From Pseudomonadota bacterium (GTDB lineage Bacteria; Pseudomonadota; Gammaproteobacteria; Burkholderiales; Thiobacillaceae), in NCBI GenBank assembly GCA_021849595.1, contig JAJZSR010000001.1, positions 6,004-70,003 on the forward strand: a DNA stretch of 64,000 nucleotides, given 5' to 3'. The position numbers were made by a program, and so were the translations under genes. Of this stretch, positions 2,451 through 53,555 are shown in pieces. A model generated the notes under the pieces. That model worked only from the letters and a program-made list of their open reading frames with translations, had not been told where the DNA came from and did no database searches. How positions within the stretch are numbered: position 1 is the stretch's first letter; the number at the start of each line of letters is the position of its first letter.

Positions 2451-3199
2451 GGGTGGGCGAAGCTCTGCACGAGGGAGCCGATGACCAGGTCCCAGCCGTT
2501 GACCAGGACAAAAAGCATCAGCTTGAAGGGAAAAGACACCGTCACCGGCGAAAGCATCATCATGCCCATGGACATGAGGACAGCGGCCACTACCATGTCG
2601 ATGATGAGGAAGGGGATGAAGATGATGAAACCGATCTGGAACGCCGTCTTCAACTCGGAGGTAACGAAGGCCGGAATGAGCAGGGTCATGGGCGTGGCTT
2701 GCGGCGACGCCAGGGTCTTACGCCCCGAGAGCTTGACGAACAGCGCAATGTCGTCGCTGCGCGTTTGACTCAGCATGAACTGCTTAAGCGGCGCCGAGCC
2801 GGTTTCCACTGCCTGCATGAGGGACATTTGGTTGTTCAGCAGGGGCGTCAGCGCGGTGTCGTTGATCTTCTGGAACACCGGCGCCATGACGAAGAAGGTG
2901 AGGAACAGCGAGAGGCCCACGAGTATCTGGTTGGGCGGCATTTGCGCCGTCCCGAGCGCCTGGCGCAGCAGGGAAAGGACGATGACGATGCGCGTGAAGG
3001 CCGTCATCATGAGCAGCATGGCGGGCAGGAACACCAGGGCCGTCATGAACAGCAACGTCTGGATACTGAGGCTGTATTGCGTGCCGCCGCCCGCTGCGGG
3101 CGTGGCCGTGAAGGCCGGCAGGCCGGCCGCCGGAGCCAGCACCGGCAGGGCCATCAGTATCAGGCCGGCGATGCAGCCGGCCGTCGTCGTTCTGCTCAT
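2447..3199 (-). CDS. fliP: Flagellar export apparatus protein FliP
   Basis: Signal peptide, then [27 protein letters not shown] and [22 protein letters not shown] chose the start at MSRTTT, which forms an ATGA overlap with the fliO stop. The ORF track start at 3238 remains possible. Confidence 0.92.
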
Positions 3200-3552
3200 G
3201 GACTCGAACCTCTCCTTTCCATCACTTTGCGCAACCATTCCGGGAAGCCGGCCGCCTCAGGCGCGGAAAACGCCAGGGGCTCCGGCAGCACGTGCAGGGT
3301 GCGCAGCCCCTGGGGGCCTGCACCCAGCAGCAATTGCTGCCCGCCCACCTGGATAAGCAAGAGGCGTTCCCGCGGCCCCAAAGGCAGCGTGGCGAGCACG
3401 CGCAAATGCTGCGTGCCGGCCGCCGTGCCAGGCTGGGCGCGGCGCAGCAGCCAAAGCGCCGCAACCATGAGGACGATGACCAGCAGCAGCCCTGCCAATA
3501 CTTTGAGCAGTTCGAGCCAGGAAAAGGGATCAGCAGCGGAGGGAGCAACCAT
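3196..3552 (-). CDS. fliO: Flagellar protein FliO
   Basis: 118 aa, single TM segment ([22 protein letters not shown]), conserved position between fliN and fliP. Confidence 0.8.
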
Positions 3553-3649
3553 GGCAGGCGACGTTTTTTTGACGAGGAAAAAAAGCGGCGACGGTTTTTT
3601 TACGCGACGCTGACGGGCCGCGTCGCGCGGGCGCCGCGGGTACTGCGCC

Positions 3650-17010: not shown

Positions 17011-17847
17011 TCAGCCCCGCTCCTGGATGCCGCCGGACATCAAAGGGGTGTTCCCCACCTGCGTCGGATGCTGCGGGGCCACCACCACGATGGACACGCG
17101 GCGGTTCTTGGCCTGCCCCTGCGGATTGCCGTTGGAGGCGATGGGATGGTATTGGCCGTAGCCGGCCGCCACCAGTTGTTCGGGCGCCACGCCCTGGTCT
17201 ATGAAGATTTCCACCACAGTGACGGCGCGCTGCGCCGACAGCGCCCAGTTGGACTGGAATTGGGGCGTGTGGATAGGCACGTTGTCGGTAAAACCGTTCA
17301 CCTGGATCTGATAGGGAATGCTGCGTATGACATGCGCCACCCGGGTCAGCACGGCGTCAGCGCCGGGCGCGAGGCTAGCCTGGCCGGAAGCAAAAAGCAC
17401 CTTGGCGTTGATTTCGATCACCACGCCCAGTGGGGTGAGATTGATATTTACGTCACCCTTGTCGATCAGCGGCTTGAGCAGAGTTTTGATCTGCAAGGCG
17501 ATTTTTTCCAGCGCCTGCGAGGCATCCTTGGGCTCGGGCGTGGGGCGCTCGATGATGCTGACATGAGGAACCGGCTGGAGCGAGGTGGGTTGCGGAAGGG
17601 GGGGAAGCTTGACCGTCGAGGCGACGGTGTTGAACGGCTCGCCCTGCTGGATAGGCGCCGGCATTTTGGGCTGGCCGGTGAAAGCGGCGAACAGGGTGTC
17701 GGAAAGGACTTTGTATTTGCCCTCGTTGACCGAGGAGATCGAGTACATCACCACGAAAAAGGCAAACAGCAGGGTGATGAAATCGGCATAGGAAACCAGC
17801 CAGCGCTCGTGGTTTTCATGCTCTTCGTGGACAGGTTTGCGCGCCAT
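17011..17847 (-). CDS. motD: MotB/MotD-type flagellar stator B subunit (OmpA-like C-terminus). No adjacent MotA/MotC gene
   Basis: N-terminus HENHERWLVSYADFITLLFAFFVVMYSISSVNEGKYKVLSD, with the conserved Asp in the TM helix. C-terminal OmpA-like peptidoglycan-binding domain (NGFTDNVPI...SNWALSAQRA...NRRVSIVV). Confidence 0.85.
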   Translation of the reverse strand: MARKPVHEEHENHERWLVSYADFITLLFAFFVVMYSISSVNEGKYKVLSDTLFAAFTGQPKMPAPIQQGEPFNTVASTVKLPPLPQPTSLQPVPHVSIIERPTPEPKDASQALEKIALQIKTLLKPLIDKGDVNINLTPLGVVIEINAKVLFASGQASLAPGADAVLTRVAHVIRSIPYQIQVNGFTDNVPIHTPQFQSNWALSAQRAVTVVEIFIDQGVAPEQLVAAGYGQYHPIASNGNPQGQAKNRRVSIVVVAPQHPTQVGNTPLMSGGIQERG

Positions 17848-17898: not shown

Positions 17899-17922
17899 AT
17901 TAACGGCAGGCGCGGCCGGGAT

Positions 17923-18489
17923 TTAAGGGGTGGTGCGCTGGCGCGCCACGTCGCGGCGGTGGTGGCGGAAAATCAGCCGCTCCAGGCCCCGCTGCACGGC
18001 GGGTTCCAGACCTCTGAATTCGAGGGTTCGGCAATATCCATGAGCCTGCAGGGCGTGTTCTTCCACCACGACGCCCGGCAAGACGAGCGGCATGACCACA
18101 CGCTGGCGCAGATAAACGCGCGTCCAGAAATGCTGGCCTACCCCGAGGGCCTCTGGGCTGGCCCAGCGCAGCGTATGCGCAGTGAGGATACAGGGAAACG
18201 GCGGCGGCACCTTCCCCATCCCGCGCAACGCGGCGCTGGCCATGAGCAACAACAAATCGACCCGACGTTCCAGCGACTGGATGCCGCTGTCCCGCGCGTG
18301 CTCCGTTTCGGCGGCGCCGGCCGCCTCATCCATGGCCAGCAGGGCGCGCAATAGGACGTGGTTGTCGGCCATGACATCCGAAAGCGCCGCAGGGTCTTCC
18401 GGTGGAGCCCCCCAGGCCAAGGGCAATTGGCCTTCCAGCCTGACGGCATCGCCGCCGGCCAGGCTGTTAAGTTCGTGGTAAGCAGTCAT
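17923..18489 (-). CDS. Hypothetical protein (about 188 aa), possibly a PilZ-like or other flagellar accessory protein
   Basis: GC3-rich ORF in operon position between fliS and motD, with a C-terminal RRDVAR (RRxxxR-like) motif. I recognise no family with certainty. I chose the start at MTAYHELNS. Confidence 0.55.
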   Translation of the reverse strand: MTAYHELNSLAGGDAVRLEGQLPLAWGAPPEDPAALSDVMADNHVLLRALLAMDEAAGAAETEHARDSGIQSLERRVDLLLLMASAALRGMGKVPPPFPCILTAHTLRWASPEALGVGQHFWTRVYLRQRVVMPLVLPGVVVEEHALQAHGYCRTLEFRGLEPAVQRGLERLIFRHHRRDVARQRTTP

Positions 18490-18637
18490 CGCAGGCTCCC
18501 AAAGCTCCAACTCGGCGCGACTTGGGCCGCGCTTCGGCTCCAATAGTATAGGAATTGCGCCGAAGAACTTTCAGCCGGGTTCGCCGGCGCTCAGCCCGTC
18601 CACCTTGCGGGAACCAACCGGCCTGGAGCCAGCGCCG

Positions 18638-19018
18638 CTACTCGCCGACGGCCAACCAGGCTTCCTTCAGACTGCCTACGGCGGCGCGGCACTGCGCCAG
18701 GGCATCGAGATCGTTGAAAATATTGGCTTGGGCAAGCTGCGCGAGCAAGGTGGTATATACCCGTTCGAGCCCGGTACTCAGGTTCGTTGTGTTCTGCACC
18801 GCCTCTGCGGGCAAGATGGCCAGCAAGTGCTCGACGATGCGGTAGGCCTTGTCCAGCGGAATCACCTTTTTGGCATTATCGGCGGCCTTGATGGCCTCCT
18901 CCGCGCGCTGCAGATATTCGAGGATGCCGTCCAGCCCCTGGAGGTAGAGCTGCTCCCCCGACACGCCCTGGTGTTCGATTTGGCGATAAGCGCGCAATGC
19001 TTGCTGAGCGGTGTACAT
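18638..19018 (-). CDS. fliS: Flagellin chaperone FliS
   Basis: 126 aa four-helix-type sequence (AYRQIEHQGVSGEQLYLQGLDGILEYLQRA...KAYRIVEHL) downstream of fliD. Confidence 0.9.
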   Translation of the reverse strand: MYTAQQALRAYRQIEHQGVSGEQLYLQGLDGILEYLQRAEEAIKAADNAKKVIPLDKAYRIVEHLLAILPAEAVQNTTNLSTGLERVYTTLLAQLAQANIFNDLDALAQCRAAVGSLKEAWLAVGE

Positions 19019-20990: not shown

Positions 20991-21368
20991 CTATGCCTTG
21001 CCGCTCAGCAGGCTGCCCGGCGCAAGCCGGTCGGCGTTCTTGGCCGCCTGCAATGCCTGATCGGCAGGAATGTAATATTGATAAAACACTTGCTGCGTGG
21101 CTTTGTCCATCAGTTCAACCAAGACTTGGCCAGGATGGTCGCCGTTGGGATTCAGCCCGGCGCGCAAAGTGATGGAAGACGAATTTTGCGCCACCCGCTC
21201 CTGCAAATGCTGAAGCGCCTGCGCCAGATCCTGCGACGGCACCGAGGACACTCCGCTCCCTTGGGATGAACCCGGCGTTGCTGCGGATACCTTCGCATTG
21301 GGCTGGGTAGGCGTCCCCGAGGGCACGGTCTGCTGGGCTGCCAAACTGGAACTGGGATTTATCTCCAT
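20991..21368 (-). CDS. flaG: FlaG-family flagellar protein
   Basis: 125 aa with the C-terminal motif VLVELMDKATQQVFYQYYIP, located between fliC and fliD. Confidence 0.85.
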   Translation of the reverse strand: MEINPSSSLAAQQTVPSGTPTQPNAKVSAATPGSSQGSGVSSVPSQDLAQALQHLQERVAQNSSSITLRAGLNPNGDHPGQVLVELMDKATQQVFYQYYIPADQALQAAKNADRLAPGSLLSGKA

Positions 21369-21388: not shown

Positions 21389-21410
21389 CCCCCCGGATCG
21401 CTCCGGGGGG
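21389..21410 (-). terminator. Strong GC hairpin immediately after the fliC stop (terminator or attenuator)
   Basis: CCCCCCGGA-tcgc-TCCGGGGGG: 9-bp perfect stem with a 4-nt loop, 13 nt downstream of the fliC stop. The U-tract is weak. Confidence 0.6.
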
Positions 21411-21422
21411 TTGCCCTTTGGA

Positions 21423-22898
21423 TTACGGCAACAGCTTGAGGTAGCTCTGCTGCAGGGCGTTGGCTTGCGCCAGGGTGGAGATGCCGGCCTGCTGCAGGAT
21501 CTGGTACTTGGTCAGTTGCGAGGTCGCCTCGGCGATGTTCGCATCCTGCACCACGGAGCGCGCGGACTGCAGATTGGTCGCGGTGGTCTGCAAGTTCTGC
21601 ACCGATGCCTGTACCCGATTCTGGATCGCGCCGAGCGCGCCGCCTTGCTGGTTCAAGGCATTGATGGCGTTGTCGATGATCGAGATGGCCTGGTTGGCGC
21701 CCTGCACCGTGGACACGCTGACCGTTGACGCGGCATTGAGCGAGCTGATGTTGGACAGCCCGATGTTGGTGCCATTGCTCAGCGAGTAGCCTTGCGTCGA
21801 TTGCAATTGGACGTAGCCCTGGACCAGCGCCGTGCCCGCCGCGCTCGTAATTGCGGAAGCACTGCCTGCCTGCAACGTTCCGCTGCCGCCGAAGCCGGAA
21901 ATCAGGACGTTGTGGCCCTGATTCTGCGTCAGCACCAGTTGGTTGCTGGAGTTGACGCTGGCCGCCACGCCGGTCTGCGCCGTGCTGTTGTTGATCGCCG
22001 CGACCAGGCCGCTCAAGCCGGTGGGATCGACGCTAGTGACGTTGGCCGAGATGTTGACCGTGTTGGTCGGGCTGCCCGAGGTTCCGTTGGAGATGGAGAA
22101 GGAAAACGAGCCGCTCGTCACGGAAAACGCCACGCTGGTGTTGGCCGTTGCGCTTACCCCGGTCTGCTGCGTAATGGCGTTGAACGACGCCGCAATGTTG
22201 GCCGCCGATTCGCTCGCAGTCACCGCTACACCGCTGGCGCCGGCGGAGCCGGATACGTTTACCGTGCCGGCCGTGAAATTGCCCGCGCCGGTGCTGATGG
22301 TATAGGCGGAACCGTAGCCGTTGGAGGTGACTGAACCGCTGCCGGCAGCGTAGACACTGCCGCTGGTGGCGACGGTATTCACGCCGATGGCATTGGCCTG
22401 CGCATTGGAGATGGAGACGTTGATAACCTGGTTGGCGTTCGCGCCCACCTGGAACTGCTGGCCGGAAAAGCTGCCGTCCAGGATGTTCTGGCCGTTGAAC
22501 TGGGTCTGGGTGGCAACGGTTTGCACCTGGGCCAGCAGTTGTGACACGACTCCCTGCAGGGAAGCCCGGTCGGCCGAGGTGTTGGAGCCGTTGGCTGCCT
22601 GCACGGCGATGGTGCGGATCTGCTGCAGCAGATTGGTTTCGTTCTGCAGCGCGCCCGTGGCCGTCTGCACCAAGGACACCGCCTGGTTGCCGTTGGACAC
22701 CGCCTGGTTCAAGCCATTGATCTGCGTGGTGAAGCGCTGGGCGATGGCGTAACCGGCAGGGTTGTCCGCCGGGCTGTTGATCGCCTTGCCCGTGGAAAGC
22801 TGCTGGATATAGGTAGAAAGATTGCTGGAAGTATCGTTGAGCGCGTTGAGCGTGCTCAGGGAATTGATGTTGGTGTTGATGATCCCTGTAATTGCCAT
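21423..22898 (-). CDS. fliC: Flagellin
   Basis: 491 aa with conserved D0/D1 N-terminus (INTNINSLSTLNALN...LSTGKAINSPADNPAGYAIAQRF) and C-terminus (QILQQAGISTLAQANALQQSYLKLLP). The Ser/Thr-rich central domain carries two flagellin-IN-like motifs. Confidence 0.97.
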   Translation of the reverse strand: MAITGIINTNINSLSTLNALNDTSSNLSTYIQQLSTGKAINSPADNPAGYAIAQRFTTQINGLNQAVSNGNQAVSLVQTATGALQNETNLLQQIRTIAVQAANGSNTSADRASLQGVVSQLLAQVQTVATQTQFNGQNILDGSFSGQQFQVGANANQVINVSISNAQANAIGVNTVATSGSVYAAGSGSVTSNGYGSAYTISTGAGNFTAGTVNVSGSAGASGVAVTASESAANIAASFNAITQQTGVSATANTSVAFSVTSGSFSFSISNGTSGSPTNTVNISANVTSVDPTGLSGLVAAINNSTAQTGVAASVNSSNQLVLTQNQGHNVLISGFGGSGTLQAGSASAITSAAGTALVQGYVQLQSTQGYSLSNGTNIGLSNISSLNAASTVSVSTVQGANQAISIIDNAINALNQQGGALGAIQNRVQASVQNLQTTATNLQSARSVVQDANIAEATSQLTKYQILQQAGISTLAQANALQQSYLKLLP

Positions 22899-22904
22899 GT
22901 TGAA

Positions 22905-22939
22905 GCTCCTTTCATAAGCCTAGTTCGGCATCCTTGCCG
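22905..22939 (-). promoter_or_regulatory. fliC 5' leader with two GGA motifs: one in a hairpin loop and one in the Shine-Dalgarno sequence (putative CsrA sites)
   Basis: The minus strand reads CGGCA-AGGA-TGCCG (22939..22926), a 5-bp stem presenting AGGA in the loop, and AAAGGAGC (SD, about 22912..22905) 7 nt before the ATG. Confidence 0.55.
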
Positions 22940-22951
22940 TCTTGCGGGCTT

Positions 22952-24457
22952 TCAGCCTGCAACAGGCTTATCGTCACGTCCCCTGAAAACTTTAGCGTGC
23001 ATATTCTGTGGCGACGCTGGGTGTTGATGCGGCTCTTCGCGCAAAGCCTGCAGGCGCCGATGCAACTCCCCGATTTTGGCAACGAGTTCATCGACACGCG
23101 GGGCAGCACCTGCGGGCGCCGGGGCATTTGCCGCGCCCGGGGCGCATAACCGGCCGCAGAACGCCGCAATGGTCTGAGCGGCCTGCGCTTGGCGCGCCAG
23201 CCCCTCGCGCAAGCTGGCCAGGGCTGGCCGCACATCGGCCCGTAGTGCCTCTACCGGCTCCGCGTCGGCCGCAGCCTCCCCAGCCTGCAGCGCTAGGCCG
23301 GCTTGCGCGATGTCGCGCGCCAAATCCATGCCTTCGGCGCACAGGGGGTCGAGCTGTTCGCCCAAAGCGGCGAGCTGGGCGGGTTCGGCTTGGCCCTGCA
23401 GTAGGGCCAGACGCAGATTCAGGCATAGCAGTAGCAGCTGCTCGACTTTTTCCCCCGCTGCTTGCAGAGCCGGGGCCAGGCCATCGGGCTGCGCGTGGCC
23501 GCGCCTGCGCTCGGGCAGCTCCCGCGCCAACGCGTCCTGGATTTCCTGCGCCCGCTCGCTGCCCGAGCGCAAGCCGGCGGCGAGCCCCTGCAGGCCGCGC
23601 AGCAATTTATCGAAATGCTCGGCCCCCGCAAGCTGTGGACCGGTCTGGACCGCGGCGCAGACCTTGGCCAGTTGACCGGCCAGTGTCTCCAACTCTGCCG
23701 CCGCTTGTTCCGCCTGCGCCAGCTTGCCCACGGCGGCTTCCCGCATGTTGGCGCTGCGGCCCTCCAGTTCCTCCAGGTCTGCCGCCAGCGCGCGCAAGCC
23801 GCGCCCGACGGGCAAGGCTGCCACCGACAAACCGGCCGCCATGGCCCGTAACCGATCGCGCAGGGCAGCGTGCTGGCGGCGCCAGCCCCAGGCCAGATAG
23901 GCGGCCGCCAGCCCCAGCAGCGTGACGCTGCCCAGGGCGAACAGCGCCAGGTTGTGCTCCACCATGACGCGCAGTCGGGCGCTGCGCGCGGCCTGCGCCA
24001 GTCCCTGGCGCCCCAGGCGGGCAGCATATCGGCCCAGCGCCTGCTGCAGCCGCGCCAGTTGCGCCGTCGAAGCGGCGGTAAGCACCGCACCGCTGGCGAG
24101 CGGGTGGCTCAACTCCACCAGTGCGGCCAACGCTTGCCGGTCGGCCCCGTCGAAGGGCAGCGCAGCCGCCTGGCCGTAGAGACCCTGCAAGACCCCATCG
24201 GCAAACTGCATGCGGTTGCCGGCGACCGCCGCCGCGCCGTTGGTCCCCGATGCGGCCTGGTTCGCCAGTTGGCGCGCCGCCGCCACCTCGTTCTGCACCA
24301 CTTGCAGTTGCATGGTCATCCGGCCCAGCCGCGCCCGCGCTTCCATGCCCTGCTCGACGCCCCGCAACTGCCAATAGGCCCAGGCCGCCCCGCCAGCCAG
24401 CAAAGCGGCGGCGACCAGGGCCAGAAAGAGTAACGCGTAGCCGGGGGTAAGCTTCAC
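22952..24457 (-). CDS. MCP-like membrane protein: TM1, periplasmic region, TM2 and a long Ala/Leu-rich coiled coil, without a canonical MCP signalling tip
   Basis: 501 aa with TM segments at the N-terminus and around residues 170-195, followed by about 300 aa of heptad-like Ala/Leu/Gln sequence. There is only a weak tip-like stretch (EQLLLLCLNLRLALLQG). Its start overlaps the upstream cheW-like stop. Confidence 0.6.
   Translation of the reverse strand: MKLTPGYALLFLALVAAALLAGGAAWAYWQLRGVEQGMEARARLGRMTMQLQVVQNEVAAARQLANQAASGTNGAAAVAGNRMQFADGVLQGLYGQAAALPFDGADRQALAALVELSHPLASGAVLTAASTAQLARLQQALGRYAARLGRQGLAQAARSARLRVMVEHNLALFALGSVTLLGLAAAYLAWGWRRQHAALRDRLRAMAAGLSVAALPVGRGLRALAADLEELEGRSANMREAAVGKLAQAEQAAAELETLAGQLAKVCAAVQTGPQLAGAEHFDKLLRGLQGLAAGLRSGSERAQEIQDALARELPERRRGHAQPDGLAPALQAAGEKVEQLLLLCLNLRLALLQGQAEPAQLAALGEQLDPLCAEGMDLARDIAQAGLALQAGEAAADAEPVEALRADVRPALASLREGLARQAQAAQTIAAFCGRLCAPGAANAPAPAGAAPRVDELVAKIGELHRRLQALREEPHQHPASPQNMHAKVFRGRDDKPVAG
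22968..22994 (-). promoter_or_regulatory. Sigma28 (FliA) promoter of fliC
   Basis: The minus strand reads TAAAGTTT-N11-GACGATAA against the consensus TAAAGTTT-N11-GCCGATAA (one mismatch), about 70 nt upstream of the fliC ATG. Confidence 0.85.
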
Positions 24458-39496: not shown

Positions 39497-40783
39497 ATGC
39501 GTCATTCTCGTGAAAAGGAGTGGCTAAAAAATTCCGGCCTCTTCGATGCGGCATGGTATCTCCAACATAACCCTGATGTCGCCGCATCAACGTTCGATCC
39601 ACTCGACCACTGGTGCGATTTCGGACACAAAGAAGGTCGTGACCCAAATGCCGGTTTCTCCGTCAACGAGTACCGCCGCGCGCATCCGGATTGCTTCATC
39701 GGCCAGAATCCTTTGTTCCACGCCGCAAGAGCTCAAGCACATCGTGGTATCGCGGATCACCGTCTGCGTGTGCAAAGCCTACGTGGGCGGCCATTGCCAG
39801 CCGTAAGCCCAAGTGGCGCCCGACTCGTCGCCTCGGAAATTATTGAAGCCGACTCGGTGCGCAGGATCGCAGTCATAAAACTCGACCATATCGGTGATGT
39901 GTATCTTTCCTTGTCGGCGCTTGAGCGATTACAGCAGAAATTCCCTAACGCCGAATTCACTATCTTTTGTGCATCTTTCACCCGTGAAATTTTTGAGAGC
40001 GCTGGATTTGGACATTGTGTAACACTGGATGTCTTCCCTTATGGCGGCGTCGGCCATAATGGGGTCCGCCCGCGTGTCGCGTTACCCGCCAGCCAATTCG
40101 ATCTCGCAATCGATTTCCGGGTCGAACGCGACGCGCGCGAAATTATGTTCGCAGTTGGCGGCTTCTTAACCGTCGCTTACGATCCGATGGCAGACTATCG
40201 CTTGCCATATCCTGGCGCCGACATTCCCCATGAAAAGCAGCTACACCTGCTTGTGGAAAGAATTTCCAGTACCGGGCGCGCGACCGTGCCCGTACCTTTG
40301 TCCCGCCCGCTACGCGTGGTCCTTTGCCCTAGCGGATCGGTACAGGCCAAGCAATGGCCGAAGGCGAATTGGATCGAACTCGCCCGTCTGCTCAGACAGG
40401 CAGGCCATACGCCAATCTTTCTGGGCGCCCCCGCCGATCTCGAAGAGACCCAACGGCTGGCACGTGAGGCCGGCTCTGCACTGCAATCTCCCCTTGCATT
40501 GCAGCACTACCCGACTTGGGTAAGCGAGTCTTCCGACGTTTATGTTGGTTGCGATACCGGCCCCACCCATGCAGTGGCCTTGCAGGGGCATCGGGTCGTC
40601 GAGATTATCGGCGGCTACACCAATGTCGAGGAATGGATTGCGCCCGGGCCCAATGTCCTTGGCCTACATCGGCCCACACCTTGCTCTCCTTGCTTTTCGC
40701 CCCGATACTGCCCTAGCGCTTGGTATTGCCTGTCGATCCCCGCCAGCGACGTGTTTTGGGCTATTGAGCTGCTGTCCACGTAA
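39497..40783 (+). CDS. Glycosyltransferase family 9 (heptosyltransferase-like) with an N-terminal DxxWYLxxNPDV/EGRxPN motif
   Basis: RIAVIKLDHIGDVYLSLSALERL, VVLCPSGSVQAKQWPKANWIELARLL and YVGCDTGPTHAVAL are GT9 hallmarks. The gene sits in a lower-GC stretch directly after flgL. Confidence 0.75.
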   Translation: MRHSREKEWLKNSGLFDAAWYLQHNPDVAASTFDPLDHWCDFGHKEGRDPNAGFSVNEYRRAHPDCFIGQNPLFHAARAQAHRGIADHRLRVQSLRGRPLPAVSPSGARLVASEIIEADSVRRIAVIKLDHIGDVYLSLSALERLQQKFPNAEFTIFCASFTREIFESAGFGHCVTLDVFPYGGVGHNGVRPRVALPASQFDLAIDFRVERDAREIMFAVGGFLTVAYDPMADYRLPYPGADIPHEKQLHLLVERISSTGRATVPVPLSRPLRVVLCPSGSVQAKQWPKANWIELARLLRQAGHTPIFLGAPADLEETQRLAREAGSALQSPLALQHYPTWVSESSDVYVGCDTGPTHAVALQGHRVVEIIGGYTNVEEWIAPGPNVLGLHRPTPCSPCFSPRYCPSAWYCLSIPASDVFWAIELLST

Positions 40784-40799
40784 GCCAAACGTCAAAATC

Positions 40800-43700
40800 A
40801 TGAACGCTAATGCCGCTAATCCCTCCTCGGTGTCGCAATGGACTATTTGCACCCCCACGCGCTCCGGGAATCTGCGTGTTTTTAGAAACGATATCGGTGC
40901 TGCTACTCGCTCATTATTGGAATACGGCGAGTGGGCTTGGAACGAGATTACCTTTATGTTCCAGTTCGCCGATCAAGGCTCGACCATAATCGATGTTGGC
41001 GCCTACGTCGGAACCCACACTTTGGCTTTTGCCGGCCATGTCGGGCCAAGCGGCCATGTGTATTCGATAGAAGCCCAGCCCGCCTCCGTAAGTGTTCTGA
41101 AGCACAACGTTGCAGAAAGCGGGTTTGCGCACGTCGATGTAATCCATGCCGCCGCATCAGCCTCGCCTGGAATCATTCAACTTAGCGCAATCGACATTAC
41201 CGCGGCGCACAGTTTTGGCAGCGCAGCAATCGAGGAGCAACGATATATCGAAACTGGCCAGGTAGATGGAGCGATCATCCAGGTCCCAGCGATCACCCTC
41301 GATAGCCTGCGGCTCGCCGGTGCGCCAGCGCTTATCAAGATCGATGTCGAAGGGATGGAAAGCACGGTGCTTCAGGGAGCAAGAGAGCTCTTGTTTAAGT
41401 ACCGACCAGTGATCTATGCCGAATGTAATTCCATAGACGCCGGCGCGCAGACGCTCAATCGCCTGCACGAGTTCGGTTATGCGGCGTTTGCTCATGTCGT
41501 CGATGCCTTCAATCCCGACAATTGGAGAAAGGCCACACACAATATGTTCGGTGCCGCCCGTGAGGTAGCCATCGTCGGTATCCCTCTTGAGCGCCGAGCC
41601 AACGCTCTGCAGATTACGCAACGCCCTGTTGAGGATTTCTTCGAACTGCGCTCTCTCGACGATTTGTGCGGCGCCCTGCTGCTTAAGCCACAATATCCGT
41701 CCGAGGTGCTCCAGCACACTACCGCCGCAGCTAGTTCACGTTTTCAGCAACTACTGGGACGACTGACTCTCGGCCCGACAGCCCCCAAGGCTGATCCGCC
41801 GGTAGAGTTGAGGATACTGCACGGAGGCCGCATCACTGGCGCAGAAGTTGCTGTCTTGCTGCATTTGCACTACCCGGATCTCTGGCAAGAATTTGCAGAG
41901 CTTATCCGCCAAATTGAGACTGAATGCGATCTCTATATTTCGCTGACCGACAACAGCATACAAGTGCTGCCGGCAATAATCGAGGTCTTTCCGCACGCAT
42001 ACGTTGTTCTGGCGGGAAACCGTGGTCGAGACATTGCGCCACGACTCGCCCTCCTGCGTCAGATACGACGGCATTCATATGAACGCATTCTCTTTCTCCA
42101 TGGAAAAAAATCTCCCCATTTAAGGAATATCGAGCGTATCGACATCCCCTTTCTTCAACACCGCGATGGCGATCGCTGGCGCCGAGAACTGCTTCAGGGA
42201 CTTACTACAGATATGCCCCGTGTCGTCGAGGTATTTAAACGTAATCCCAAGCTCGGATTGCTGGGACCGCAAGGATTCTGGCTGAGCCTGAATCGCGACT
42301 CCAATCTCTCCCGGGTTGCTGCGCTCGGCAACCGAATGGGCGTTGCAGTGGATCCTAACCGTCATGGCTACTTCGGCGGTTCCATGTTTTGGTGTCGCCC
42401 GCAGGCGCTCGACCCATTGCTTGCGCTCGGCCTTGGCACGACGGATTTTGAGAACGAATCCGGCCAAACCGACGGTACGCTGGCCCACGCGGTGGAACGA
42501 CTGTTCACTCTCAGTACGGAAAAAGCAGGATTGCAGGTGGCAGACACCGCCGGCAACACTCTTGGCGAACCGCCACACCCCCTTCTTCCCTGGCTCCCCG
42601 AACACCGTTGGTCCCTGGCAGAAAAATCCTGGGCGGAAGAAGTGCTGGCCAAGTGGCCGCAGCCGCCGCGCTTCCGCATCGCCATCGTCCCATCGTCGCA
42701 GAGCCTGCCGCCGCAACCCACTCTCACCAGCGTCCAGGGCCAATGGCTGGCCTGCGAAACCAGGGAAATCGAAGCCGCCCAAGGGGGCGATCTGCTCGGC
42801 AATATCAACAGTGCTCTGCTGGCATCCACCACAGATTGGGTTGCCATAATGGACGCCGGCGACCAGCTCGCCCCCGACGCCCTTTTCCGAGTAGCCCTGG
42901 CGATCAAACAGCATCCCGAATGGCAAGTCATCTACACGGACGAGGACAGCCTCACCGCCGACGGCCAGCATGTCAATCCGCACTGCAAACCCGATTTCAA
43001 TCCGGACTATTTGAGAAGCTTGCCCTACACGGGCGGGCTGCTGCTCATCCGGCGCGATCTGTTCGCGGATTTGGGTGGCTTCGACCCAGAGTGCGAGGGT
43101 GCCGAGGATTACGACCTGGTGCTGCGCGCCTGGGAGCAGGCGGGCGATGCCGCCATCGGCCATGTGCCCGAGGTGCTGTATCACCGCCTGCAGGGTTCCG
43201 GCCACAGCTGTAAATCGGTACCAGAAATCCTTGCTGCCGGCCAGGCGACGCTGGAAGCACATCTGCGTCGCTGCAACATCGATGCGGAAGTTCAGCCCGG
43301 CCCCTTCCCGCCCTCGTTCCGCGTGCGCTATCGCACTGTTCAGCAGCCGCTGGTATCCATCCTCATTCCCACGCGCGACCAACTGCCCATGCTGCAGCGC
43401 TGCGTGGAATCGATCATCGAGAAGACGAAATATCCGGCCTACGAAATCCTCGTCATCGACAATGACAGCCAAAGCGAGGAGGCGCGCAACTATCTCGCCG
43501 CGATAGAAAGCAAGGAAGCCGAACTCGGCGGCCGCCTGCGCGTGATTCGCCAGCCCGGCCCGTTCAATTTCTCCGCCATGAACAATACCGCGGCGCGCGC
43601 GGCGCGGGGCGAGTTTCTGCTGCTGCTCAACAACGACACTGCTGCATTGCACGACGACTGGCTGGACGAGATGATGTCCCACGCCTTGCGCCCGGAGGTG

Positions 43701-45209
43701 GGCATCGTCGGCGCCAAGCTGCTTTATCCGGACGGACGCATCCAGCATGCGGGCGTCATCCTGGGCATGAAAGGCCCGGCCGAACATCCCTTCATCACGC
43801 GCCCGCCGGAGGATCGCGGCTATTTCGGGCGCCTGCAGCTCACGCAGAATTATTCAGCGGTAACGGGCGCCTGCCTGCTAATCCGCAAATCGCTGTATGA
43901 GGAAGTCGGCGGACTGGACGAGCAGGCCTTCGCGGTTTCCTACAACGACATCGACTTGTGCCTGAAAGTCGGCGCGACGGGAAAACACATCGTCTGGACG
44001 CCTTATACCATCCTCATGCACGAAGGGTCCGCCAGCCAGAAGGGACAGGTGGAGGCCAAGCCGGACGAAGCCAAGCTCAAGCGCTTCGCCGCCGAGAAGG
44101 ATGCCATGTACACGCGCTGGCTCCCCAAGATGGCCTACGACCCTGCTTATAACCGCCATCTGAGCCTCGCTACCACCGACTTCCTGCTCGACGACCAGGC
44201 AGCGCTGGCCTGGGATCCGGACTGGCGCCCGCGCCCACGCATCCTCGTGCACGCCGCCGACCGCGAAGGCTGCGGCGAGTACCGCATCATCGCGCCCATG
44301 CGCGCCCTCAATCGCGCCGGGCACACTCAGGGCTGGGAATCCATGCGCATCTTCGAGCCGGCGGAAATGGAGCGCATGAACCCGGACAGCCTGGTGGTGC
44401 AGCGCCAGATGGAATGGCCGCAGATCGAGGCGCTGGAACGCCACAAGAAATACAGCAAGGCCTTTCGCGTGTTCGAGATCGACGACCTCATCACCAACCT
44501 GCCGCTCAAGAGCACGCACCGCTCCGGCATCCACAAGGACATTTACAAGCGCTTCCGCCGCTCGGCCGGACTGTGCCAGCGCCTGGTGGTGGCCACCCAG
44601 CCGCTGGCGCAAGCCTACCGCGACCTGAGCGACGAGGTCGTCGTGGTGCCCAATTACCTCGAAACGCACCGCTGGGGCAGCCTGACCCCACAGCGCCGTG
44701 AGGGCGCCAAACCGCGCGTGGGCTGGGCAGGCGGCATCGGCCATCAGGGCGATCTGGAAATGATTGCAGACGTGGTGCGCGATCTGGCGGAAGAAGTCGA
44801 TTGGGTGTTTTTCGGCATGTGCCCGGATGCCCTGCGGCCTTATATCAAAGAGTTCTATCCCGGCGTGCCGCTCGATCAATATGCGCCAAAACTCGCCAGT
44901 CTCGACTTGGATCTGGCCGTCGCGCCGCTGGAGGACAACCCTTTCAACGAGGCCAAAAGCCACCTGCGCCTGCTGGAGTACGGCATCCTGGGCTACCCGG
45001 TGGTGTGCTCCGACTTGGCGCCCTATCAAGGCGATTTCCCCGTCTGGCGCGTTCCCAACAAATATGCCGCCTGGATGAAGGCCATTCGCGAAGCGCTCAG
45101 CGACCGAGAGGCGCTGGCGGCACGTGGGGACGAACTGCGCCAACACATCCGCCGGCATTGGATGCTGGAAGACCATCTGGATGTCTGGCTCAAGGCCTGG
45201 CTGCACTGA
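40800..45209 (+). CDS. 1469-aa multidomain fusion: FkbM methyltransferase, RgpF-like (rhamnan synthesis F) domain, degenerate GT2, GT2 and a GT1/GT4-like C-terminal domain
   Basis: FkbM domain at about 40932-41444 (IIDVGAYVGTHT...LIKIDVEGMES). RgpF-like domain at about 41832-42524 (AVLLHLHYPDLW...GNRGRDIAP...GGSMFWCRPQAL). Degenerate GT2 at about 42672-43199 (WVAIMDAGDQL...IYTDED). GT2 at about 43353-44024 (VSILIPTRD...ILVIDNDS...LNNDT...GACLLIRK). GT-B-like C-terminal domain at about 44238-45206. I chose the start at MNANAANP (40800). The upstream part of the ORF track entry overlaps the GT9 gene. Confidence 0.8.
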   Translation: MNANAANPSSVSQWTICTPTRSGNLRVFRNDIGAATRSLLEYGEWAWNEITFMFQFADQGSTIIDVGAYVGTHTLAFAGHVGPSGHVYSIEAQPASVSVLKHNVAESGFAHVDVIHAAASASPGIIQLSAIDITAAHSFGSAAIEEQRYIETGQVDGAIIQVPAITLDSLRLAGAPALIKIDVEGMESTVLQGARELLFKYRPVIYAECNSIDAGAQTLNRLHEFGYAAFAHVVDAFNPDNWRKATHNMFGAAREVAIVGIPLERRANALQITQRPVEDFFELRSLDDLCGALLLKPQYPSEVLQHTTAAASSRFQQLLGRLTLGPTAPKADPPVELRILHGGRITGAEVAVLLHLHYPDLWQEFAELIRQIETECDLYISLTDNSIQVLPAIIEVFPHAYVVLAGNRGRDIAPRLALLRQIRRHSYERILFLHGKKSPHLRNIERIDIPFLQHRDGDRWRRELLQGLTTDMPRVVEVFKRNPKLGLLGPQGFWLSLNRDSNLSRVAALGNRMGVAVDPNRHGYFGGSMFWCRPQALDPLLALGLGTTDFENESGQTDGTLAHAVERLFTLSTEKAGLQVADTAGNTLGEPPHPLLPWLPEHRWSLAEKSWAEEVLAKWPQPPRFRIAIVPSSQSLPPQPTLTSVQGQWLACETREIEAAQGGDLLGNINSALLASTTDWVAIMDAGDQLAPDALFRVALAIKQHPEWQVIYTDEDSLTADGQHVNPHCKPDFNPDYLRSLPYTGGLLLIRRDLFADLGGFDPECEGAEDYDLVLRAWEQAGDAAIGHVPEVLYHRLQGSGHSCKSVPEILAAGQATLEAHLRRCNIDAEVQPGPFPPSFRVRYRTVQQPLVSILIPTRDQLPMLQRCVESIIEKTKYPAYEILVIDNDSQSEEARNYLAAIESKEAELGGRLRVIRQPGPFNFSAMNNTAARAARGEFLLLLNNDTAALHDDWLDEMMSHALRPEVGIVGAKLLYPDGRIQHAGVILGMKGPAEHPFITRPPEDRGYFGRLQLTQNYSAVTGACLLIRKSLYEEVGGLDEQAFAVSYNDIDLCLKVGATGKHIVWTPYTILMHEGSASQKGQVEAKPDEAKLKRFAAEKDAMYTRWLPKMAYDPAYNRHLSLATTDFLLDDQAALAWDPDWRPRPRILVHAADREGCGEYRIIAPMRALNRAGHTQGWESMRIFEPAEMERMNPDSLVVQRQMEWPQIEALERHKKYSKAFRVFEIDDLITNLPLKSTHRSGIHKDIYKRFRRSAGLCQRLVVATQPLAQAYRDLSDEVVVVPNYLETHRWGSLTPQRREGAKPRVGWAGGIGHQGDLEMIADVVRDLAEEVDWVFFGMCPDALRPYIKEFYPGVPLDQYAPKLASLDLDLAVAPLEDNPFNEAKSHLRLLEYGILGYPVVCSDLAPYQGDFPVWRVPNKYAAWMKAIREALSDREALAARGDELRQHIRRHWMLEDHLDVWLKAWLH

Positions 45210-45277
45210 GCCGTAAACATGATCGAGGCCCTGCAATCCTGCGGGTGCCCGGCTTTTTGGCATCCAAGGTTTACCGC

Positions 45278-46558
45278 ATGCAGCCCACCCAACCCGCCGA
45301 CCCCACCCAAAACCCCGAAACGACCGAGAGCGCCTCCGGCCAGTCGGTCTACATCGCCCGCCAGCCCATCCTGGACCGCAAACAAAACATTTTCGGCTAT
45401 GAATTGCTGGCGCGTGCCGATGCCACCAGCCAGTCGGCCCCCGCCAGGCATACGATCGAGTCGGATACCGCATTTCTCTTCAATGCCCTGTCGAACTTCG
45501 CCACCGAGCAGTTGTTCGGCGACAAGCTGGCCTTCGTCAACTGCATACTGGAAGACCTCAGCGGCGAACATCTGGAAATCGTGTTTCCCGAGCGCATCGC
45601 CCTGGAAGTGCCGCGCGTGCCCGAGGACGACCCGGCCGCCATCGGCGCCGTCGCCGAGAAGCTGGCGTGCCTGCGCGGGCGCGGCTTCCGCATTGCCGCA
45701 GGGGCTTTCGTCGCCACCGGGCCGTATGCGCCCTGGCTGCCGCACGTCAGTTTCGTCAAATTCGACGTTCAGTCCGGCAATCCGGCCCTGGCCCAGTTTC
45801 TCGCAAAAAAAGCGCAGCGCCAGTTTCAGTTGGTCGCCGAAAAAGTGGAAATGCCCGACCAGTTCAAAACCCACTTCGATCTGGGTTTCGATTATTTCCA
45901 GGGCTATTACTTTGCCAAGCCCCAGACCGTGACCGCCAAGGTGGTCAACCCGGCCTTCTCCAACGTTCTGCAGCTCATCAACCTGGTCGCCAAGGAGGCC
46001 GAGCTGCGCGAAATCGACGAGGTCATCAAGCGCGATCCGGCGCTGTCGTTCAAGCTTTTGCGCTACATCAATTCGTCCGGCTTCGGCCTCATGTCGGAAG
46101 TGACTTCCTTCCGCCATGCCGTCACTCTGCTGGGTTATCGCAAGCTTTTCCGCTGGCTCACGCTGCTGCTCGCCACCATCGACAAATCCGGCATGCCACC
46201 TGCGGTGTTCCGCACGGCGGTGACCCGGGGGCGCATGATGGAACTGCTGGCCGGCAATCTCATGTCGCCGGAGGAATGCGACAACGCCTTCGTGACCGGG
46301 GTGTTCTCCCTGCTAGACACCATGCTGGGGGTCCCCATGGATAAAGCGCTCGCCAGCATCACGCTGCCGGAGGCCGTGGGCGATGCGCTGCTGCACCACC
46401 AGGGTACCTACGGGCCCTTCCTGAAGATCGTCGAGGCCTGCGAAAAAGGGGCATTCGCCGACATCGAACTGGAGGCGATGCTGTTGAATCTGGATGCGGC
46501 CAAAGTGTCTTCCGCCCATCTCCAGGCGCTGGCCTGGACCGAAAGCTTCGGCCTCTGA
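45278..46558 (+). CDS. Degenerate EAL domain + HDOD domain signalling protein
   Basis: N-terminal YIARQPILDRKQNIFGYELLAR (ELL in place of EAL), with DDFG replaced by AGAF and FQGYYFAKP retained. C-terminal HDOD domain (DPALSFKLLRYINSSGFGL...AVTLLGYRKL). Confidence 0.8.
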   Translation: MQPTQPADPTQNPETTESASGQSVYIARQPILDRKQNIFGYELLARADATSQSAPARHTIESDTAFLFNALSNFATEQLFGDKLAFVNCILEDLSGEHLEIVFPERIALEVPRVPEDDPAAIGAVAEKLACLRGRGFRIAAGAFVATGPYAPWLPHVSFVKFDVQSGNPALAQFLAKKAQRQFQLVAEKVEMPDQFKTHFDLGFDYFQGYYFAKPQTVTAKVVNPAFSNVLQLINLVAKEAELREIDEVIKRDPALSFKLLRYINSSGFGLMSEVTSFRHAVTLLGYRKLFRWLTLLLATIDKSGMPPAVFRTAVTRGRMMELLAGNLMSPEECDNAFVTGVFSLLDTMLGVPMDKALASITLPEAVGDALLHHQGTYGPFLKIVEACEKGAFADIELEAMLLNLDAAKVSSAHLQALAWTESFGL

Positions 46559-51920: not shown

Positions 51921-52056
51921 GCGGCGCGGGCCCGTCCTGCCAAGGTGATGCCGCTGCCCAACTGCCTTGCCGCAAGGCGTGGAAAATAAAGGCAACAGGC
52001 CTACAATTTCATTTACATGTGACGTTACTGCTCATGCAGCCATTAACCCCCGAGCG

Positions 52057-52380
52057 ATGGATCCTTTGAAAAGCAGTTCCCCCGTGGCCCCGACGGAACC
52101 CGTCGCGAAAAACCGCGGCCAGGCGGCCGCCGCGTCGCCGTCCTCCCCTGCGAAGGTGGCGGCGGAGTCGGCCCCGGCACGCGATAGCGTCACCTTGTCC
52201 CAGGCGGCGCGCCTGCTGGCGGCCGGCGGCGCCGCGCCGGAGGCGAGCGCCGCCCGCCTGGCCGCGCTCAAGAAAAGCATCGCCCAGGGCACTTATGGCG
52301 TCGACCAGAAGCTCATCGCCCGTTCTCTAATCCGGGACAACCTGGATCTGTTGGCAGCCACCCCACCGTCCGGCGACTGA
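52057..52380 (+). CDS. flgM: Anti-sigma28 factor FlgM
   Basis: 107 aa, disordered N-terminus, C-terminal motif LAALKKSIAQGTYGVDQKLIARSLIRDNL. I chose the start at MDPLKSS. Confidence 0.85.
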   Translation: MDPLKSSSPVAPTEPVAKNRGQAAAASPSSPAKVAAESAPARDSVTLSQAARLLAAGGAAPEASAARLAALKKSIAQGTYGVDQKLIARSLIRDNLDLLAATPPSGD

Positions 52381-52387
52381 GGCCATC

Positions 52388-52804
52388 ATGACCACTTCCG
52401 GCAAAACCACTCTGGCGCAAATCCTGGAAGAAGAAACCAGCCTATTGCAACGCTTCCTGGACATCCTGGCGCAGGAGCGCGAACAGCTCCTGGCAGGCAA
52501 GACCGAGTGCCTCGCGGCGCTGGCGGCGGCGAAGACGGATCTGGCCGCGGCCTTGGAGCGCGCCGAGGCCGACCGCCGCGCCCGTGCCACAGCAATCCCC
52601 GGCACATCCGCCGCCTGGCGGGAAATACGCGAGTTGGGCGCAAGGGCTGCGCACGCCAATCTGGAAAACGGCGTCATCCTGGCCGCCCTGACGCGCCACG
52701 TGGAAGGCGCCCTGCGCATTTTCACCGGCGCCGAGGAGCCCATCTACGGACCCGCGGGCAGCCAAGCCAGAAGCACGGGCTCGCGTCCACTGGCCAGCGC
52801 CTGA
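52388..52804 (+). CDS. flgN: Flagellar chaperone FlgN
   Basis: 138 aa with an N-terminus typical of FlgN (LAQILEEETSLLQRFLDILAQEREQLLAGK), directly after flgM. Confidence 0.8.
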   Translation: MTTSGKTTLAQILEEETSLLQRFLDILAQEREQLLAGKTECLAALAAAKTDLAAALERAEADRRARATAIPGTSAAWREIRELGARAAHANLENGVILAALTRHVEGALRIFTGAEEPIYGPAGSQARSTGSRPLASA

Positions 52805-52806
52805 GC

Positions 52807-53043
52807 ATGCTGATCCTCACGCGCCGGCCCGGAGAAGCCATCCGCATCGGCGACAAGATCCGCATCGTGGTGGTGCAGGCCGAGGCCGGCAAGATACGCA
52901 TCGGCATCGAAGGGCCGCGCGAACTGCCCATCCTCAGGGAAGAGCTTTATACCCTCATACGCGAAGGCAATCAGCAGGCCAACGCCCCCGCCGACCTGGC
53001 GCTGGAGCATTGGCTGGCGGAAGGAAAGAAGGAAAAACCATGA
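52807..53043 (+). CDS. csrA: Carbon storage regulator / translational repressor CsrA (flagellar-locus type)
   Basis: Starts MLILTRRPGEAIRIGDKIRIVVVQAEAGKIRIGIEGPRELPILREELY. 78 aa with a C-terminal extension. ATGA overlap with fliW. Confidence 0.92.
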   Translation: MLILTRRPGEAIRIGDKIRIVVVQAEAGKIRIGIEGPRELPILREELYTLIREGNQQANAPADLALEHWLAEGKKEKP

Positions 53044-53555
53044 CCATTTATGCCAGCCGTTTCGGCCCCGTCGAGGTCCCCGCCAATGGCCTCTGGCAAT
53101 GCCGGCAGCCGCTTGCCGGCTTCGAGGAACTGCGCGACTTCGCGCTCATACAAGTCGCCGGGCAGAGCCCCTTTGTCTGGCTACAGTCGCTGGAACTGCA
53201 ACCCATCGCCTTTCTCCTGGCGGAACCGCGCCATTTCGGCCTGCAGTATCCCCGCCCCGCCGACGCCGAAGTATCCGGCTTGGCCGGGGCAGCCTGTCAG
53301 TTCCTGGTCATGGTGACCATCCCCGAGAACAAGGACGAGCCGCTGCGCCCGCACCACCTCGGACCCTTGTGCCTCGACCCCGGCAGCGGGGAATTCGTGC
53401 AATGGGTGTTGGAGCCGGGCCGCGTCGCCGTCAGTGCCGGTTTTCGCCCGCAAACCGAGGATCTGGGTCTGGCCCCCGCCCTGCTCCCACGACTGGTGCG
53501 CTGGCCGGACGGCAGCGCCAGCCCCGATTCCAGATCCGCCTCCATTGCCGCATAA
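53040..53555 (+). CDS. fliW: Flagellar assembly factor FliW (CsrA antagonist)
   Basis: Starts MTIYASRFGPVEVPANGLWQCRQPLAGFEELRDFALIQ...PFVWLQSLELQPIAFLLAEP, a typical FliW beta-barrel N-terminal pattern. Confidence 0.85.
   Translation: MTIYASRFGPVEVPANGLWQCRQPLAGFEELRDFALIQVAGQSPFVWLQSLELQPIAFLLAEPRHFGLQYPRPADAEVSGLAGAACQFLVMVTIPENKDEPLRPHHLGPLCLDPGSGEFVQWVLEPGRVAVSAGFRPQTEDLGLAPALLPRLVRWPDGSASPDSRSASIAA

Follow-up and report, generated by a model that had tools for sequence, protein, structure and literature searches.

A fliC leader shared by Thiomonas and Acidithiobacillus relatives resembles a CsrA operator and may form part of a CsrA-FliW-flagellin partner switch

Could the short leader of a flagellin gene in a Gram-negative bacterium couple flagellin synthesis to export through CsrA and FliW, as in Bacillus subtilis? 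The question is raised by fliC in a 64,000-nucleotide stretch of contig JAJZSR010000001.1, from a Thiomonas-like bacterium of the family Thiobacillaceae; we call this whole stretch the window. An initial annotation, made from the letters of the sequence, had described a near-perfect sigma-28 promoter, a leader of about 60 nucleotides (nt) with one GGA motif in a tetraloop hairpin and another in the Shine-Dalgarno sequence, and a csrA-fliW pair in the same window, and had read these together as a CsrA-FliW design. We put at roughly three in four the probability that CsrA uses the fliC leader as a cis-acting operator and forms a partner switch with FliW and flagellin. Elements that recur at fixed positions in 50 flagellin leaders carry this reading, together with a CsrA and a FliW encoded in one apparent flagellar operon.

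The promoter, the leader, and the fliC start were read directly on the minus strand, where the -35 element, the -10 element, hairpin 1, hairpin 2, the Shine-Dalgarno sequence, and the ATG follow one another in the 5′-to-3′ direction:

22987-22994, minus strand: -35 element of sigma-28 type, TAAAGTTT, 11-nt spacer to the -10 element
22968-22975, minus strand: -10 element of sigma-28 type, GACGATAA
22942-22962, minus strand: hairpin 1, UUGCAGGCUGAAAGCCCGCAA, the stem-loop with which the transcript is predicted to begin, present in the minimum-free-energy fold
22926-22939, minus strand: hairpin 2, CGGCA-AGGA-UGCCG, the predicted high-affinity CsrA site, with the loop GGA at 22931-22933
22903-22921, minus strand: weak hairpin 3, AGGCUU/GAGCUU, which makes the Shine-Dalgarno sequence partly inaccessible
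22905-22912, minus strand: Shine-Dalgarno sequence AAAGGAGC, the predicted second CsrA site, with its GGA at 22907-22909
22896-22898, minus strand: fliC ATG
21423-22898, minus strand: fliC, encoding a flagellin of 491 amino acids (aa) (Pfam Flagellin_N, 4.1e-35; Flagellin_C, 4.5e-20)

The E. coli sigma-28 consensus is TAAAGTTT-N11-GCCGATAA. The fliC promoter agrees with this consensus, as commonly given, at 15 of 16 positions, and it is the sole zero-mismatch match to a degenerate sigma-28 pattern within the window. The match points to transcription of fliC by the late flagellar sigma factor. In Acidithiobacillus caldus, fliC, csrA, and fliW depend on RpoF and are reduced in an rpoF deletion mutant (PMC6543871). 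If transcription starts about 7 nt past the -10 element, the leader is ~63 nt long. Both hairpin 1 and hairpin 2 are contained in the minimum-free-energy structure that RNAfold returns for it; in the ensemble, the stem of hairpin 2 is paired with a probability of 0.87 and its loop GGA is unpaired with a probability of 0.89. The Shine-Dalgarno sequence, partly tied up by hairpin 3, is unpaired with a probability of 0.40. The initial annotation thus held up on the promoter, down to its coordinates, on the leader length, on the second GGA within the Shine-Dalgarno sequence, and on the folding of hairpin 2 with a mostly unpaired loop; its list of leader elements was correct, but it had overlooked the hairpin at 22942-22962, which proves to be conserved at the predicted 5′ ends of these leaders. 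Hairpin 3 was considered as a component of the mechanism and dropped: its fold is seen only in loci L001, L003, and L053, the closest relatives, and is not kept beyond them.

Upstream, an open reading frame (ORF) of 501 aa (22952-24457, minus strand) encodes an N-terminal membrane segment and an Ala-rich body and matches no known family. It terminates within hairpin 1, so that its last 14 codons contain the fliC promoter. Transcripts reading through from upstream of that promoter would carry a longer leader.

The high-affinity CsrA consensus obtained by systematic evolution of ligands by exponential enrichment (SELEX) is RUACARGGAUGU, with the core CARGGAUG. The core of hairpin 2, CAAGGAUG, equals this SELEX core as commonly given. 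Within the window, such resemblance is cheap. The 12-mer GGCANGGANGCC occurs once against 0.67 occurrences expected, the core CANGGANG is not enriched (52 occurrences against 44 expected), a loose scan finds 365 hairpins with GGA in the loop, and the fold of the whole leader is no better than that of shuffled sequences (z = -0.71). A Shine-Dalgarno GGA was likewise present in 23 of 24 unrelated flagellin leaders. Since the in-window statistics are not significant, the significance of the leader rests solely on its conservation among orthologs.

Orthologs came from a flagellin scan of one genome per GTDB species, which returned 77 loci. The leader set (n = 50) consists of the window and 49 orthologs from Thiomonas, Tibeticola, Acidithiobacillus, and Igneacidithiobacillus, and includes the second tandem flagellin genes of loci L005 and L010 and a corrected start for L043. 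These three loci had been candidates for exceptions to the layout and were rejected as such, being cases of offset starts or of tandem second genes with a canonical leader. The flagellins of the set are 59 to 96% identical and represent two proteobacterial classes. The closest belong to a Thiomonas metagenome-assembled genome (MAG) (96%), T. delicata (90%), T. intermedia and T. bhubaneswarensis (~79%), and Tibeticola sediminis (72%), followed by the Acidithiobacillus and Igneacidithiobacillus set (59 to 75%). Identity then falls to 53% for an Alphaproteobacteria MAG (L049) and to ≤48% for other proteobacteria and other phyla.

A common layout is found in 50 of 50 leaders: a sigma-28 promoter, a 5′-terminal hairpin of variable sequence, a GGCA-NGGA-NGCC hairpin, and a Shine-Dalgarno GGAG. 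The ortholog promoters read TAAAGT or TCAAGTT, an 11- to 12-nt spacer, and then GNCGTNAN, with -10 elements such as GCCGTTAA and GTCGTCAA. The GGCA-NGGA-NGCC hairpin lies ~30 to 40 nt upstream of the start in every leader and contains GGA in 49 of them; the loop motif precedes the Shine-Dalgarno GGA by 23 to 25 nt throughout, and GGAG begins 11 nt before the ATG in 48 leaders (10 and 12 nt in the remaining two). The leader columns of the MAFFT alignment show no variation at GGCA, at the initial G and the final A of the loop GGA, at GCC, and at one Shine-Dalgarno G; the second G of the loop and the other GGAG positions of the Shine-Dalgarno sequence are shared by ≥90% of sequences. The remaining flanking sequence is variable. 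The two-site layout that had been annotated in the window, with one site on the Shine-Dalgarno sequence, is therefore conserved in 50 leaders, as a prediction at the level of sequence and structure.

Within hairpin 2, the core CA-NGGA-NG is invariant, and variation is seen at the N positions of the loop and in the outer pair of the stem. The outer pair covaries from C-G to U-A in 9 to 10 sequences. The base preceding the loop GGA may be A, G, C, or U; the base following it is U, C, or A and never G, so that the loop avoids mimicking a GGAG Shine-Dalgarno sequence. An A-U pair closing the tetraloop is present in 26 of 46 distinct sequences and absent in 20, and the loop is for this reason better called a hexaloop, A-NGGA-N, than the tetraloop first annotated, although the GGA hairpin itself stands at 22926-22939. 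In L037, a gammaproteobacterial MAG (L037:2932-3006), GGUA replaces NGGA in an otherwise intact hairpin, the sole exception of this kind.

A covariance model of the leader (R1) gave 51 strong matches (44.7 to 83.1 bits) in the 631 kb made up by the window and the loci, every one of them at a flagellin start. The window itself contains a single match (65.6 bits; E = 6e-16). A related element occurs in a Desulfobacterales MAG, where two flagellin genes carry the hairpin GGCAAGGAUGCC or GGCAUGGAUGUC (GGCA(A/U)GGAUG(C/U)C) followed by AAGGAGG; no such element was found in the Steroidobacteraceae and other Burkholderiaceae flagellin leaders from the same scan. Nowhere in the window did an Rfam covariance model match at its gathering threshold, and the leader element is not a curated Rfam family.

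Hairpin 1 is conserved as structure and not as sequence. In every ortholog, a hairpin begins 5 to 7 nt past the -10 element, with differing sequences. A column-wise covariation test found only 57% paired cells (MAFFT and model-fitted alignments); because the length and register of hairpin 1 differ between clades, we replaced it with per-sequence folding against shuffles. By this measure, 26 of 27 unique hairpin 1 segments fold better than the shuffle mean (mean z = -2.8). Hairpin 1 is probably an mRNA-stabilizing 5′ structure on a very abundant mRNA. In Igneacidithiobacillus and some Acidithiobacillus leaders (L019, L020, L032, L034, L045, and L048), hairpin 1 displays an NGGA tetraloop of its own, for example, GUGGGA-AGGA-UCUCAC; the window lacks this third potential CsrA site.

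Two further observations concern gene copies and folding among the orthologs. T. bhubaneswarensis and a related MAG each have two tandem flagellin genes, and in L010 the hairpin 2 motif survives in the second copy (3531-3605; model score, 77.2 bits) but is gone from the first (2933-3006; 21.5 bits). In L005 to L010, L036, and other Thiomonas loci, with the window not among them, codons 4 to 6, UCCGGCAUC, are an exact complement of GAUGCCGGA, the 3′ arm of hairpin 2, and the predicted minimum-free-energy structures loop out the Shine-Dalgarno sequence and the AUG.

The proposed trans-acting components are encoded in the same flagellar cluster, on the plus strand, with csrA-fliW 30 kb from fliC:

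52002-52028, plus strand: candidate sigma-28 promoter of flgM-flgN-csrA-fliW, TACAATTT-N11-GACGTTAC, a weak sequence match only
52057-52380, plus strand: flgM (Pfam and NCBIfam matches)
52388-52804, plus strand: flgN (Pfam and NCBIfam matches)
52807-53043, plus strand: csrA, 78 aa (Pfam CsrA, 6.6e-21)
53040-53555, plus strand: fliW, 171 aa (Pfam FliW, PF02623, 7.4e-14; 52 bits against a cut-off of 25)

Pfam bears out the csrA-fliW assignment at 52807-53555. The csrA ATG follows the flgN stop codon by 2 nt, giving an apparent single operon, flgM-flgN-csrA-fliW. The csrA stop codon overlaps the fliW start (ATGA, 53040-53043), an overlap from which we infer translational coupling of the pair. The same order, overlap included, recurs in the distant relatives L078 to L081, whose FliW proteins are ~33% identical, and in L081 a comparable CTAAAGT...GCGACGTTAA precedes flgM. 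The last csrA codons (53020-53039, plus strand) read GAAGGAAAGAAGGAAAAACC, so that a pair of GGA motifs spaced 8 nt from each other covers the region where ribosomes would bind for fliW. Translation of fliW might thus itself be under CsrA control; the GGA-rich stretch is not conserved in the distant relatives L078 and L081.

CsrA keeps its RNA-binding residues: in alignments with PDB entries, its N-terminal MLILTRR and its R44-E45-E46 segment are identical to those of E. coli CsrA. Compared with that 61-aa protein, it has a C-terminal extension of 17 residues, and its NCBIfam equivalog score lies slightly under the cut-off (69 against 73). Residue N55 aligns without gaps with N55 of B. subtilis CsrA (1T3O), there is no Asn at the aligned E. 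coli position, and an equivalent Asn55 is present in the CsrA proteins of L078 and L081. In B. subtilis, N55 is needed for FliW binding and is reported to be invariant where both proteins are encoded (bioRxiv 10.1101/2020.07.02.184341).

The window FliW scores far below all six NCBIfam equivalog cut-offs (best, 58.7 against 165), and automatic annotation may therefore overlook its subfamily. An exhaustive HMMER search found 510 FliW relatives, just 25 of them under 1e-10; a word-indexed homolog search found 7 to 13 proteins. An AlphaFold2 model (predicted local distance difference test [pLDDT], 83.8; predicted template modeling score [pTM], 0.80) matched only FliW structures in Foldseek at E ≤ 0.001 (5DMD, 5JAK, 5DMB_A, and 2AJ7; probability of 1.00; target-normalized template modeling score of 0.68 to 0.76), and on this modeled structure the protein has the FliW fold. 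Alignment to 5DMB by phmmer and by profile covers FliW residues 6 to 75 only, and C-terminal residues were placed via the family alignment. Placed in this way, Q121 sits in a column that is 98% Gln among 133 FliW representatives and invariant in further family alignments (A3 and A4). From the invariance statement in the paper cited above, we take this column to be the equivalent of B. subtilis Q124, the contact of CsrA N55. The subfamily to which the window protein belongs (the window and P0008 to P0033) carries the motif L-R-x-H-x-L-x-P instead of T-x-N-L-x-x-P.

Taken together, all sequence-level predictions of the CsrA-FliW design hold, and comparison across orthologs strengthens it. The switch could then work as follows. 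Sigma-28 RNA polymerase would start about 7 nt past the -10 element, and the mRNA would open with a protective hairpin 1. One RNA-binding face of a CsrA dimer is predicted to dock on the GGA in the A-NGGA-N loop of hairpin 2, and the other face would capture the Shine-Dalgarno GGA 24 nt downstream, blocking the 30S subunit and repressing flagellin translation. From work on E. coli CsrA, a 24-nt spacing is within the span of the dimer. FliW, made from the same sigma-28 operon as CsrA and presumably translationally coupled to it, would be sequestered by cytoplasmic flagellin; upon flagellin export, free FliW would bind CsrA near N55 and the mRNA would be released, so that synthesis would track secretion.

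Several observations weigh against this model. In the window the motif alone is not significant, and the Shine-Dalgarno GGA is generic and has no evidential weight on its own, because GGA belongs to any good Shine-Dalgarno sequence (AGGAG). Several Thiomonas orthologs are predicted to fold the 3′ arm of hairpin 2 onto codons 4 to 6, which leaves the loop less exposed (loop GGA unpaired with a mean probability of 0.67); this pairing might reflect an alternative conformer or simply follow from codon choice. The proteins also depart from B. subtilis. There, a salt bridge between FliW K123 and CsrA D41 is needed for inhibition, and the FliW substitutions N108T and N108Y cause loss of function (bioRxiv 10.1101/2020.07.02.184341). 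In the window, CsrA position 41 is Pro and the K123 equivalent is V120, so the bridge cannot form. The N108 equivalent is His: the canonical T-x-N-L-x-x-P reads R-P-H-H-L-G-P, the His is common to ~20 nearest representatives, and the column is 86% Asn among the 133 FliW representatives. Because N108 and the salt bridge are B. subtilis requirements and not family-wide invariants, the missing residues mark a divergent FliW subfamily, not exclusion from the family. Finally, overexpressing csrA in A. caldus reportedly made flagella longer and cells more motile (PMC13029372), an outcome that a simple repressor model does not predict. That study examined ten neighboring leaders and rpoS, with the fliC leader outside its scope, and its classification separated Acidithiobacillus CsrA, as a distinct group, from the FliW group. 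This counterevidence leaves room for a positive or sponge role of CsrA binding and does not favor a reading without CsrA.

Such a role would mean that CsrA binds the leader with a main effect other than repression, either by stabilizing or activating the mRNA or with the abundant leader acting mainly as a sponge that titrates CsrA from other flagellar mRNAs. Precedents can be found: the A. caldus overexpression strain shows positive effects of CsrA on some neighboring genes besides its longer flagella (PMC13029372), the C. jejuni flaA leader titrates CsrA (PMC4894983), and E. coli CsrA activates flhDC by shielding the mRNA from RNase E, as cited in PMC7652899. The third NGGA tetraloop in hairpin 1 of several Acidithiobacillus and Igneacidithiobacillus leaders would also suit it. 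We nevertheless consider it improbable, since a site overlapping the Shine-Dalgarno sequence at a fixed 23 to 25 nt from the hairpin site is the repression geometry of every characterized flagellin case, and the A. caldus phenotype is indirect, flagellin having not been measured there.

Little credence, similarly, is due to the idea that the hairpins are conserved as structural, mRNA-stability, ribosome-standby, or other RNA-binding-factor elements, with GGA kept for a reason unrelated to CsrA. Hairpin 1 does look generic, with only its structure kept, the stem GGC/GCC is invariant, beyond what CsrA strictly needs, B. subtilis FliW itself binds the hag leader weakly (PMC6529632), and Rfam offers no family match. 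What speaks for CsrA instead is that the invariant CA-NGGA-NG coincides with the CsrA/RsmE recognition core, that a Shine-Dalgarno mimic is avoided in the base after GGA, that the genome encodes csrA-fliW inside its flagellar cluster, and that the same motif stands in a Desulfobacterales flagellin leader. Mere chance, a G+C-rich leader with a small GGA hairpin and an ordinary Shine-Dalgarno sequence, would account for the in-window figures (0.67 motifs expected per window, 365 loose GGA-loop hairpins, and a whole-leader z of -0.71), but position, sequence, and Shine-Dalgarno spacing are kept in 49 other leaders despite protein divergence to ~60% identity. These conservation data effectively refute it, and we regard it as extremely unlikely.

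The partner-switch reading can be set beside characterized systems. One is the B. subtilis Hag-FliW-CsrA flagellin homeostasis module (Yakhnin 2007; Mukherjee 2011), in which the hag leader forms a pair of GGA stem-loops, with the Shine-Dalgarno sequence in one of them (PMC7652899 and PMC13443453). In both organisms, the flagellin gene is under a late sigma factor (sigma-D/sigma-28), its leader combines a GGA in a hairpin loop with another GGA over the Shine-Dalgarno sequence, CsrA is extended at its C terminus and possesses N55, and fliW adjoins csrA in a translationally coupled arrangement (the coupling here being predicted from the overlap), with flgM and flgN nearby (PMC6529632 and PMC7652899). 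The two systems differ in gene order (fliW-csrA in B. subtilis and csrA-fliW in the window), in the position of the high-affinity hairpin, which in the window is the second leader element behind a separate 5′ hairpin, in the FliW His at the N108 equivalent and the K123-D41 bridge that cannot form, and in the host, a Gram-negative beta-proteobacterium known here from sequence alone.

The C. jejuni flaA leader folds into a pair of stem-loops with ANGGA, of which the second occupies the ribosome-binding site (PMC4894983). It is likewise proteobacterial, short, sigma-28 dependent, and folded into GGA-presenting stem-loops, and its structure is likewise backed by compensatory changes in related species (PMC4894983). 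In C. jejuni, however, both GGA motifs are in stem-loop loops and csrA and fliW lie apart, whereas the Shine-Dalgarno GGA of the window is outside any conserved hairpin and the csrA-fliW pair overlaps behind flgM-flgN.

Known ligands of CsrA and RsmE include the A/U-CA-NGGA-NG-U/A hexaloop hairpins of RsmZ and hcnA. Like the SELEX and RsmE ligands, hairpin 2 presents GGA in a loop of 4 to 6 nt on a short G+C-rich stem, and it shares the core CAAGGAUG = CARGGAUG; against the SELEX consensus as commonly given, its stem is GGC/GCC where the ligand has RUA/UGU. A. caldus has the sister flagellar system, with the same neighborhood of csrA, fliW, and a PilZ gene in the flagellar cluster (PMC13029372 and PMC6543871), and Acidithiobacillus genomes have the same fliC leader design.

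The flagellar cluster contains further genes and features of interest:

18638-19018, minus strand: fliS, flagellin export chaperone (Pfam FliS, 2.4e-19), downstream of fliC-ORF-fliD
17923-18543, minus strand: atypical PilZ receptor, after fliS
44801-46558, plus strand: EAL-HDOD protein
53726-54457, minus strand: YcgR-like PilZN-PilZ brake, directly after fliW

In B. subtilis, FliS, flagellin, and FliW form a heterotrimer (PMC6070490). Right after the fliC stop codon lies a strong G+C stem of 9 bp with a GCGA loop and no U-tract (CCCCCCGGA-GCGA-UCCGGGGGG; 21389-21410, minus strand); it is followed by a 125-aa ORF (20991-21368) with no Pfam or NCBIfam match, and then by fliD and fliS. The last three listed genes are related to cyclic-di-GMP, and CsrA is reported to target the A. 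caldus ortholog of the YcgR-like gene (PMC13029372). A second sigma-28-like site, TTAAATCCC-N-GCCGTTAA (17900-17926, minus strand; 2 mismatches), stands just upstream of a gene (17011-17847) whose product looks MotB-like by its N-terminal sequence. After flgL, at 39497-45209 (plus strand), the G+C content is 53 to 60% at ~39.5 to 42.5 kb against 65% overall. This low-G+C stretch covers a family-9 glycosyltransferase gene and the 5′ part of the next ORF, of 1555 aa, with FkbM methyltransferase, RgpF, and GT2 domains; it is probably a flagellin glycosylation island and was possibly acquired.

How the leader came to be shared bears on its lineage. The Thiomonas flagellins are 59 to 75% identical to those of Acidithiobacillia and ≤41% identical to those of the Burkholderiaceae MAGs of the same scan (loci L001 to L054 versus L055 to L074), and the leader and the csrA-fliW unit travel with the Thiomonas and Acidithiobacillia flagellins. 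This suggests that the whole flagellar regulon was transferred laterally between acid-mine-drainage lineages. A relationship between the Thiomonas and Acidithiobacillus flagellins was noted previously (PMC6543871).

A bolder joint reading, which we hold to be unlikely, is that Thiomonas and Acidithiobacillia share, probably by lateral transfer, a flagellar regulon with its own post-transcriptional circuit. That circuit may comprise the sigma-28 flgM-flgN-csrA-fliW operon, the divergent FliW subfamily, and a three-element leader representing a new cis-regulatory RNA family, and it could be wired unlike that of B. subtilis because FliW has His in place of the CsrA-contact Asn and no inhibitory salt bridge. 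CsrA might then be a net positive factor or a timer, as the long flagella of csrA-overexpressing A. caldus hint.

Most likely, the locus represents a new lineage for the known CsrA-FliW feedback loop, with flagellin synthesis matched to export, and not a new mechanism; the divergent FliW subfamily is its one unusual feature. The CsrA-FliW system is considered ancestral among flagellated bacteria, and the locus does not alter the accepted view of CsrA biology. By gene distribution, beta-proteobacteria were already among the holders of fliW (PMC4682653), and in the open literature we found no paper on CsrA or FliW in Thiomonas or on the Acidithiobacillus fliC leader. What the window adds is an extension of the CsrA-FliW flagellin checkpoint, with concrete mutable RNA sites, to the acid-mine and bioleaching bacteria Thiomonas and Acidithiobacillus. 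CsrA has already been engineered in such bioleaching organisms, where the FliW-flagellin axis was overlooked (PMC13029372). The conserved ~63-nt leader element, which lies outside Rfam, could be curated as a family, and the divergent FliW subfamily could reveal which FliW-CsrA contacts are truly essential.

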